64,000 nt of DNA from Escherichia phage 236Ecol005PP, in the sequence record PP434423.1. One strand, written 5' to 3'. Below the pieces are notes generated by a model. That model was given only the letters and a program-made list of their open reading frames with translations. It did not search any database and had not been told where the DNA came from. A program made the position numbers and the translations under genes. Each line of letters starts with the position of its first letter. Position 1 is the stretch's first letter. Shown piece after piece: positions 27,715 to 28,760 of this stretch.

Positions 27715-28760
27715 TAAAAATCTCCCGAGTCAACTTGCCAGCATTCAACACCGATACGACGCCACATCTCAACGACTTGGTTACGGTCATCAATAGCTAA
27801 TTTCACATCAAAATGCGGTGCAATGTGTTTCCAGAAAATTTCTTCTTTAACTACATCATCTTTACGGGTATCACCTTGTTCGCGTTGACATTGCATAACT
27901 AATGGAACACCAGCAATGTCCTCAACCCATTTACGGGTCATACGATAATATTTCGTTGGGTCTTCTTCAGTTCCACTTTCACGACCACTTACTACGATAA
28001 TCTGATAACCCATATTGGCATACATCTTCGACAGTTCAACTACCATTGGGTTGATGACATCAGTATCACACTTCTCAAGGTCATAAGGACCGCGGCCGTC
28101 CATTTTTGCTAATGTGCCATCAACATCAAAAATAACTGCGTTTGGTTTACCAGGAGTCCCTTTGTATACCGGAAGACCGAGATACTCTCGCATGCTGACA
28201 TCAGTATCACACTTCTCAAGGTCATAAGGACCGCGGCCGTCCATTTTTGCTAATGTGCCATCAACATCAAAAATAACTGCGTTTGGTTTACCAGGAGTCC
28301 CTTTGTATACCGGAAGACCGAGATACTCTCGCATGCTTTTATACATTGAGCGTAAAACATCAATCGGTACTGCTTTAGTTCCACGTTTTGAGTTACGTTT
28401 AACTAGCTCAGTCCAAGGAACATCAAACACTTTATATTCAACTTTCCAGCCGTATTCTTTGGCAAAAGTTTCCCATGCTAGGCGACGTTCGGGATTCAAG
28501 TTAGTGTCTGAAATAATTACTCCCTTGACAGAATCACCGCCATACAAAATACTTTTAGCTGTATCAAACTGCATACCAGTTACGATACCTTCTTTCTTTT
28601 TGGTATACTTGTACTCGTCACGTTCTTCATGACCCATGATGGATTGACGATAATCATCACGATTAATATTATAAAATCCAGGATTTTTAGCAATAAATTC
28701 ACGAGTCCAAGTACTCTTACCAGAACCAGGACAGCCAATAGTCAAAATAATCTTTTTCAT
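27714..28760 (-). CDS. pseT: polynucleotide 5'-kinase/3'-phosphatase carrying an internal 47-aa tandem duplication
   Basis: P-loop kinase motif GCPGSGKST at N-terminus; HAD-type DVDGT phosphatase motif present twice; about 47 aa longer than the T4 protein. Confidence 0.9.
28056..28337. repeat. perfect 2 x 141-bp tandem direct repeat inside pseT
   Basis: two adjacent identical 141-nt copies seen directly in sequence; encodes the same 47-aa segment twice in frame. Confidence 0.9.

Follow-up and report, generated by a model that had tools for sequence, protein, structure and literature searches.

The pseT gene of Escherichia phage 236Ecol005PP, an unclassified Tequatrovirus (genome PP434423.1, 167,705 bp), encodes in the deposited sequence a polynucleotide kinase/3'-phosphatase (Pnkp) in which part of the phosphatase domain appears twice. 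This leads to the question whether the phage carries a genuine duplication within this enzyme or whether the repeat entered the record during its construction. The question was addressed in a window of 64,000 nt, the whole stretch of DNA that was analysed. Within it, pseT as deposited occupies positions 27714 to 28763 on the minus strand and encodes a protein of 349 aa, which corresponds to GenBank WWT49787.1 and is labelled there as 'polynucleotide kinase [Escherichia phage 236Ecol005PP]'. Since this protein stands in GenBank, the possibility that the duplication had been introduced into the analysed window alone was rejected. Counted from the methionine equivalent to Met1 of T4, the product comprises 348 aa, and the frame is open throughout.

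The repeat was delimited by two methods. Tandem Repeats Finder (TRF) reported one array at 28055-28337 with a period of 141, 2.0 copies, 100% matches, 0 indels, and a score of 566, and a direct string comparison showed that positions 28055-28195 and 28196-28336 are identical, adjacent copies of 141 nt. The two adjacent in-frame copies described inside pseT in the initial annotation are therefore present in the sequence. The coordinates given there, 28056-28337, describe this repeat with an offset of one base, because the match between the copies extends 1 nt beyond the 141 nt on the right side (T at 28337) and 0 nt on the left side. The join between the copies lies between positions 28195 and 28196, where ...CTCTCGCATGC is directly followed by TGACATCAGTATC.... 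The end points of the repeat lack the microhomology expected of a natural duplication, as the single shared nucleotide is at chance level, and an alignment of the product to the T4 enzyme (phmmer against PDB ID: 1LTQ) places the boundaries at no gene or domain limit. Chance cannot account for a perfect repeat of 141 nt, and the 64-kb window contains no other long tandem repeat. A shorter, imperfect tandem array at 21110-21168 (24-bp period, 2.5 copies, 88% matches) lies within a 287-aa ORF (21011-21874, minus strand) in the gp30.2 region.

In the protein, the repeat corresponds to a 47-aa segment, SMREY...CDTDV, found at residues 143-189 and again at residues 190-236 of the 349-aa ORF, and the frame is kept through the duplication because 141 is 3 x 47. 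Read on the minus strand, copy 2 (28196-28336) encodes the first of these segments, residues 143-189, which follows the kinase domain. Copy 1 (28055-28195) encodes the second, residues 190-236, which is contiguous with the remaining phosphatase domain. The phmmer search against 1LTQ aligned residues 1-188 of the query to residues 1-188 of T4 Pnkp and residues 189-348 to T4 residues 142-301. T4 residues 142-188, including Asp165 and Asp167 of the DxDGT motif, are therefore doubled, and the DVDGT motif occurs twice in the ORF. The earlier statements that the segment is encoded twice in frame, that it makes the protein about 47 aa longer than the T4 enzyme, and that it carries the DVDGT nucleophile motif were thus borne out.

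Both catalytic domains were recognised in the deposited product. The kinase domain matched Pfam AAA_33 at residues 5-148 (E=1.5e-22) and contains the sequence GCPGSGKST, and the phosphatase domain matched the full length of Pfam HAD_PNKP (1-143/143) at residues 206-348 (E=8.5e-70); an additional partial HAD_PNKP stretch arises from the extra copy. The protein resembles the T4 polynucleotide kinase/3'-phosphatase (PseT/Pnkp; PDB IDs: 1LTQ and 2IA5) in being a two-domain enzyme that aligns residue for residue with 1LTQ with a handful of substitutions, and the genomic neighbourhood, cd - pseT - alc - rnlA, is alike in both phages. It differs from the T4 protein by an additional 47 aa in which residues 142-188 are repeated, and at 349 aa the deposited ORF departs from the T4-type length of approximately 300 aa and from the single-copy domain order. 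Deletion of one 141-bp copy from the sequence yields a protein of 302 aa that is identical over all 302 aa to the Pnkp of phage G50 (QBO65089.1).

The initial annotation had suggested that the duplication might alter or disable the 3'-phosphatase and thereby the repair of tRNA cleaved by the host nuclease PrrC. A structure prediction of the duplicated protein, proposed at the same time, was performed with AlphaFold2 using 29 homologues (mean pLDDT 83, pTM 0.67). In the model, the kinase domain (approximately residues 1-150) is confident, with a pLDDT around 90 or more for most residues. A complete HAD phosphatase domain (approximately residues 200-348), mostly with a pLDDT of about 90 or more, is built on the second segment. 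The phosphatase part of the first segment with its DVDGT motif (residues 153-185) has a pLDDT below 50 and adopts no stable structure. The extra copy is thus modelled as a low-confidence linker between intact domains. If the duplication were real, the model indicates that the product would most likely be a Pnkp with a flexible linker insertion of approximately 47 aa and one functional active site per domain. A functional 'double phosphatase' was considered and rejected, as the first segment comprises only part of the HAD fold and is modelled as disordered. Loss of the phosphatase would not follow even from a real duplication, because the model retains complete kinase and HAD domains, and the suggested effect on the phosphatase and on tRNA repair is unsupported. 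Two other genes of this repair context, stp and rnlA, had been described as intact in the window, and this proved correct. The gene rnlA (RNA ligase 1; 30494-31618, minus strand) is an intact ORF of 374 aa with both Rnl1 Pfam domains, and stp (60139-60219, minus strand) is an intact ORF of 26 aa.

A comparison with related T-even genomes had been proposed as a check, and the duplication was absent from every relative examined. Megablast searches with pseT and with an 80-mer centred on the junction were run against 50,697 phage records. Of the 660 phage records that matched pseT, none of the rows listed showed a duplicated pseT; in these rows, the 1050-nt query was covered by two pieces that together span only approximately 891-909 bp per record, and these records therefore carry a single copy. 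The junction-centred 80-mer gave no unbroken match in the phage records and was matched only in two pieces from opposite ends of a single copy. In exact scans of IMG/VR, of JGI metagenome contigs, and of one genome per GTDB species, a 41-mer across the junction was absent. Homologous Pnkp protein clusters were scored at E<=1e-30, and none of the best 120 of 1,023 clusters resembles the 349-aa form, all being 311 aa or shorter; full-length Pnkp homologues among the matches listed measure 291-311 aa.

Closer relatives were assessed in 22 loci retrieved from GenBank, ENA, and Logan via exact matches to the neighbour proteins NrdB, Cd, and Cd.5. All 22 loci, from independent assemblies, contain a single-copy pseT of 300-302 aa, and the pseT CDS measures 909 bp in both annotated GenBank relatives. 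Eighteen loci were aligned by BLAST to the duplicated sequence; each alignment is interrupted precisely at the junction, and its two parts share approximately 141 bp of the subject. After removal of one copy, a single uninterrupted HSP crosses pseT in 23 of 24 related loci. The nearest genomes found were G50 and SA20RB, with flanks approximately 97-98% identical.

A search for a second, independent assembly of this strain was negative, the closest loci being at most 98% identical; IMG/VR and the metagenomes contained neither the 97-nt nor the 49-nt pattern designed from private k-mers, no same-strain match came from complete E. coli genomes or from PLSDB plasmids, and a contig look-up returned no contig encoding the exact 349-aa or 348-aa product. 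The absence of the duplication from independent assemblies hence concerns related genomes and not the same strain. From the sequences of these relatives, we infer that pseT of phage 236Ecol005PP itself would be single-copy.

Comparison with the relatives also touched other genes of the window. The nrdA gene (34150-37318, minus strand) is split into a 477-aa N-terminal part (35885-37318) and a 329-aa C-terminal part (34150-35139), separated by a 236-aa ORF (35129-35839) with an I-HmuI/NUMOD-like endonuclease domain, and thus represents a 'gene in pieces' for the ribonucleotide reductase large subunit. The same layout is present in the Logan contig SRR24987893_4160 (L009), and most relatives have an intact NrdA of 754 aa. 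Between nrdB and nrdA, an ORF at 33315-34106 on the minus strand encodes a 263-aa D12-class N6-adenine DNA methyltransferase that was found in only some relatives, for example L005. The thymidylate synthase ORF (38439-38990, minus strand) ends after 183 aa and covers positions 1-175 of the 266 positions of the Pfam profile, which is consistent with a td gene split by a group I intron as in L005 and L009. At 50080-54003 on the plus strand, a gp37-like distal long tail fibre protein of 1307 aa is encoded, with a C-terminal Peptidase_S74 intramolecular-chaperone domain at residues 1209-1266; a 260-aa ORF follows it.

The end of the window carries a trace of how the record was prepared. The segment 63051-64000 comprises rIIB (minus strand) and the 11 nt beyond its start codon, and the last base of the window is the last base of the G50 record, which follows the T4 convention. 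Of the last 60 bases of the window, 59 are identical to those of G50. An arbitrary window would end at this base with a chance of approximately 1 in 10^5. Because the end base coincides with that of G50, the window represents the last 64 kb, at the 3' end, of a record that had been rotated so as to begin at the origin of the reference. Judged by this coincidence, the PP434423.1 genome was demonstrably re-oriented after assembly. With the window taken as the last 64,000 bases, the duplication would lie at about 131,760-132,041 of PP434423.1.

Circular permutation and terminal redundancy cause T4-like genomes to assemble as circles. A short-read de Bruijn assembler that closed such a genome into a circle would write it out linearly, with the same k bases at both contig ends, and adjoining contigs would likewise have k bases in common. 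If the contig were then re-oriented to the T4/G50 start, or if two contigs were joined in reference order, with the shared 141-mer left untrimmed, the former contig ends inside pseT would be concatenated between positions 28195 and 28196 and give a perfect internal tandem repeat. The annotation pipeline would then have called a 349-aa 'polynucleotide kinase'. In general terms, rotation or ordering without trimming of the shared k-mer moves the end overlap into the interior of the sequence, where it forms a perfect tandem repeat, and an overlap that starts from an arbitrary base predicts a junction without microhomology, as was seen. MEGAHIT, or another assembler with k=141, was presumably used, and the join was presumably made without trimming.

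The properties of the repeat agree with those of an untrimmed overlap. At 141 nt and 100% identity, its length equals the default last k of MEGAHIT, the k-list of which is 21, 29, 39, 59, 79, 99, 119, and 141 (COBRA paper, PMC10914622). According to the same paper, contigs from MEGAHIT and metaSPAdes, 'self_circular' ones among them, overlap at their ends by maxK bases. In a MEGAHIT assembly of another circular genome, a 141-bp 'insert matching an adjacent region' without supporting reads has been reported (PMC11572364), which is identical in length to the repeat in pseT. Papers on phage isolates use MEGAHIT with end-overlap tests of circularity, and one related T4-like contig bears the MEGAHIT-style name k141_12348. 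As in untrimmed k-mer end overlaps (MEGAHIT maxK = 141; SPAdes 127, 77, or 55), the repeat is perfect, has the length of the largest k, lacks junction homology, is single in 64 kb, and lies at an arbitrary site of a genome that assembles as a circle. The boundaries are those of an arbitrary cut (0 nt left, 1 nt right), and the contig end has been moved, with the window ending where the G50 record ends. Unlike a typical k-mer overlap, it falls inside a conserved gene and its length is divisible by 3, which has produced a plausible-looking longer protein in GenBank. A literature search found no primary publication for PP434423.1; one citing paper was found, and it gives no assembly method.

The main competing explanation is that the phage stock acquired a genuine in-frame tandem duplication very recently, by replication slippage or illegitimate recombination; its product would be a Pnkp with a 47-aa inter-domain insertion and a second, non-functional DxDGT motif. 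The sequence does stand in the public record, annotated as a 349-aa protein with a frame open throughout, and the zero divergence and kept frame fit a recent real event equally well. Both catalytic domains are predicted to fold, and in that case the protein could be tolerated. The gene pseT is non-essential on ordinary hosts, as known from T4 genetics, and since the phage can do without it on common laboratory hosts, a real variant could be maintained. Against this stands the length, as a real event would match an assembler constant exactly with a probability of roughly 1% or less; the likelihood ratio of the exact k match against a real event of arbitrary length was estimated at approximately 30-100. 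Short direct repeats are also the usual sites at which spontaneous tandem duplications form, and the junction lacks such microhomology. The tandem duplications known from T-even phages, such as those of the rII region, share with the pseT repeat the head-to-tail direct arrangement and the identity of the copies. Classical T4 duplications are, however, usually kilobase-scale, are formed between short homologous sequences, and are unstable, in contrast to a repeat of 141 bp with 0-1 nt of junction homology. A genuine duplication is further opposed by its uniqueness against the matches listed among approximately 660 genomes and approximately 1,000 protein clusters, by the rotation of the record after assembly, and by the identical 141-bp artefact documented elsewhere (PMC11572364). 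On this balance, a real event was considered improbable.

A different non-biological cause was given a still lower probability and was regarded as very unlikely. Candidates are a mistake in manual editing or concatenation, over-circularisation by a different assembler, or a polishing artefact with a length of 141 bp by chance. The single-copy pseT of every relative examined and the manipulation of the record after assembly would suit such a cause as well, but it leaves the exact 141 as a coincidence, and over-circularisation with long reads usually gives repeats that are kilobase-scale and imperfect. Because the exact match to k, the lack of junction homology, the uniqueness, and the rotation were weighed together, the duplication is regarded with high confidence as an untrimmed k=141 assembler overlap, left at rotation or joining, and not as a biological change. 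The initial annotation had allowed for either a very recent event or an assembly artefact; of these, the artefact is favoured by the k length, the junction, the rotation, and the relatives, and the recent event is disfavoured.

For the databases, this means that PP434423.1 probably exceeds its true length, inferred as 167,564 bp, by 141 bp (deposited length, 167,705 bp) and that WWT49787.1 probably represents a spurious 349-aa Pnkp. In a large protein collection, WWT49787.1 falls outside the Pnkp cluster of 1,196 members and already seeds its own 90%-identity cluster of 13 members. These are mostly short fragments labelled Vibrio, Cronobacter, or E. coli, which probably stem from contamination of bacterial assemblies with T4-like phage. 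Since 141 and 99 are multiples of 3, overlaps of these lengths can mimic convincing in-frame 'domain duplications'. As a screening rule for genomes with a circular assembly, a perfect tandem repeat that has the length of a common assembler k (141, 127, 99, 77, or 55) and lacks junction homology should be presumed to be an untrimmed overlap until reads say otherwise.

The practical value of the finding thus lies in database quality, and its biological significance is small. Should the duplication be natural after all, for which the odds are poor, the phage would possess a Pnkp variant with a 47-aa copy of the inter-domain linker and HAD motif I inserted between the kinase and phosphatase domains. 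Such an insertion could possibly change the geometry of the tetramer or the way in which the two end-healing activities are coupled during tRNA repair.
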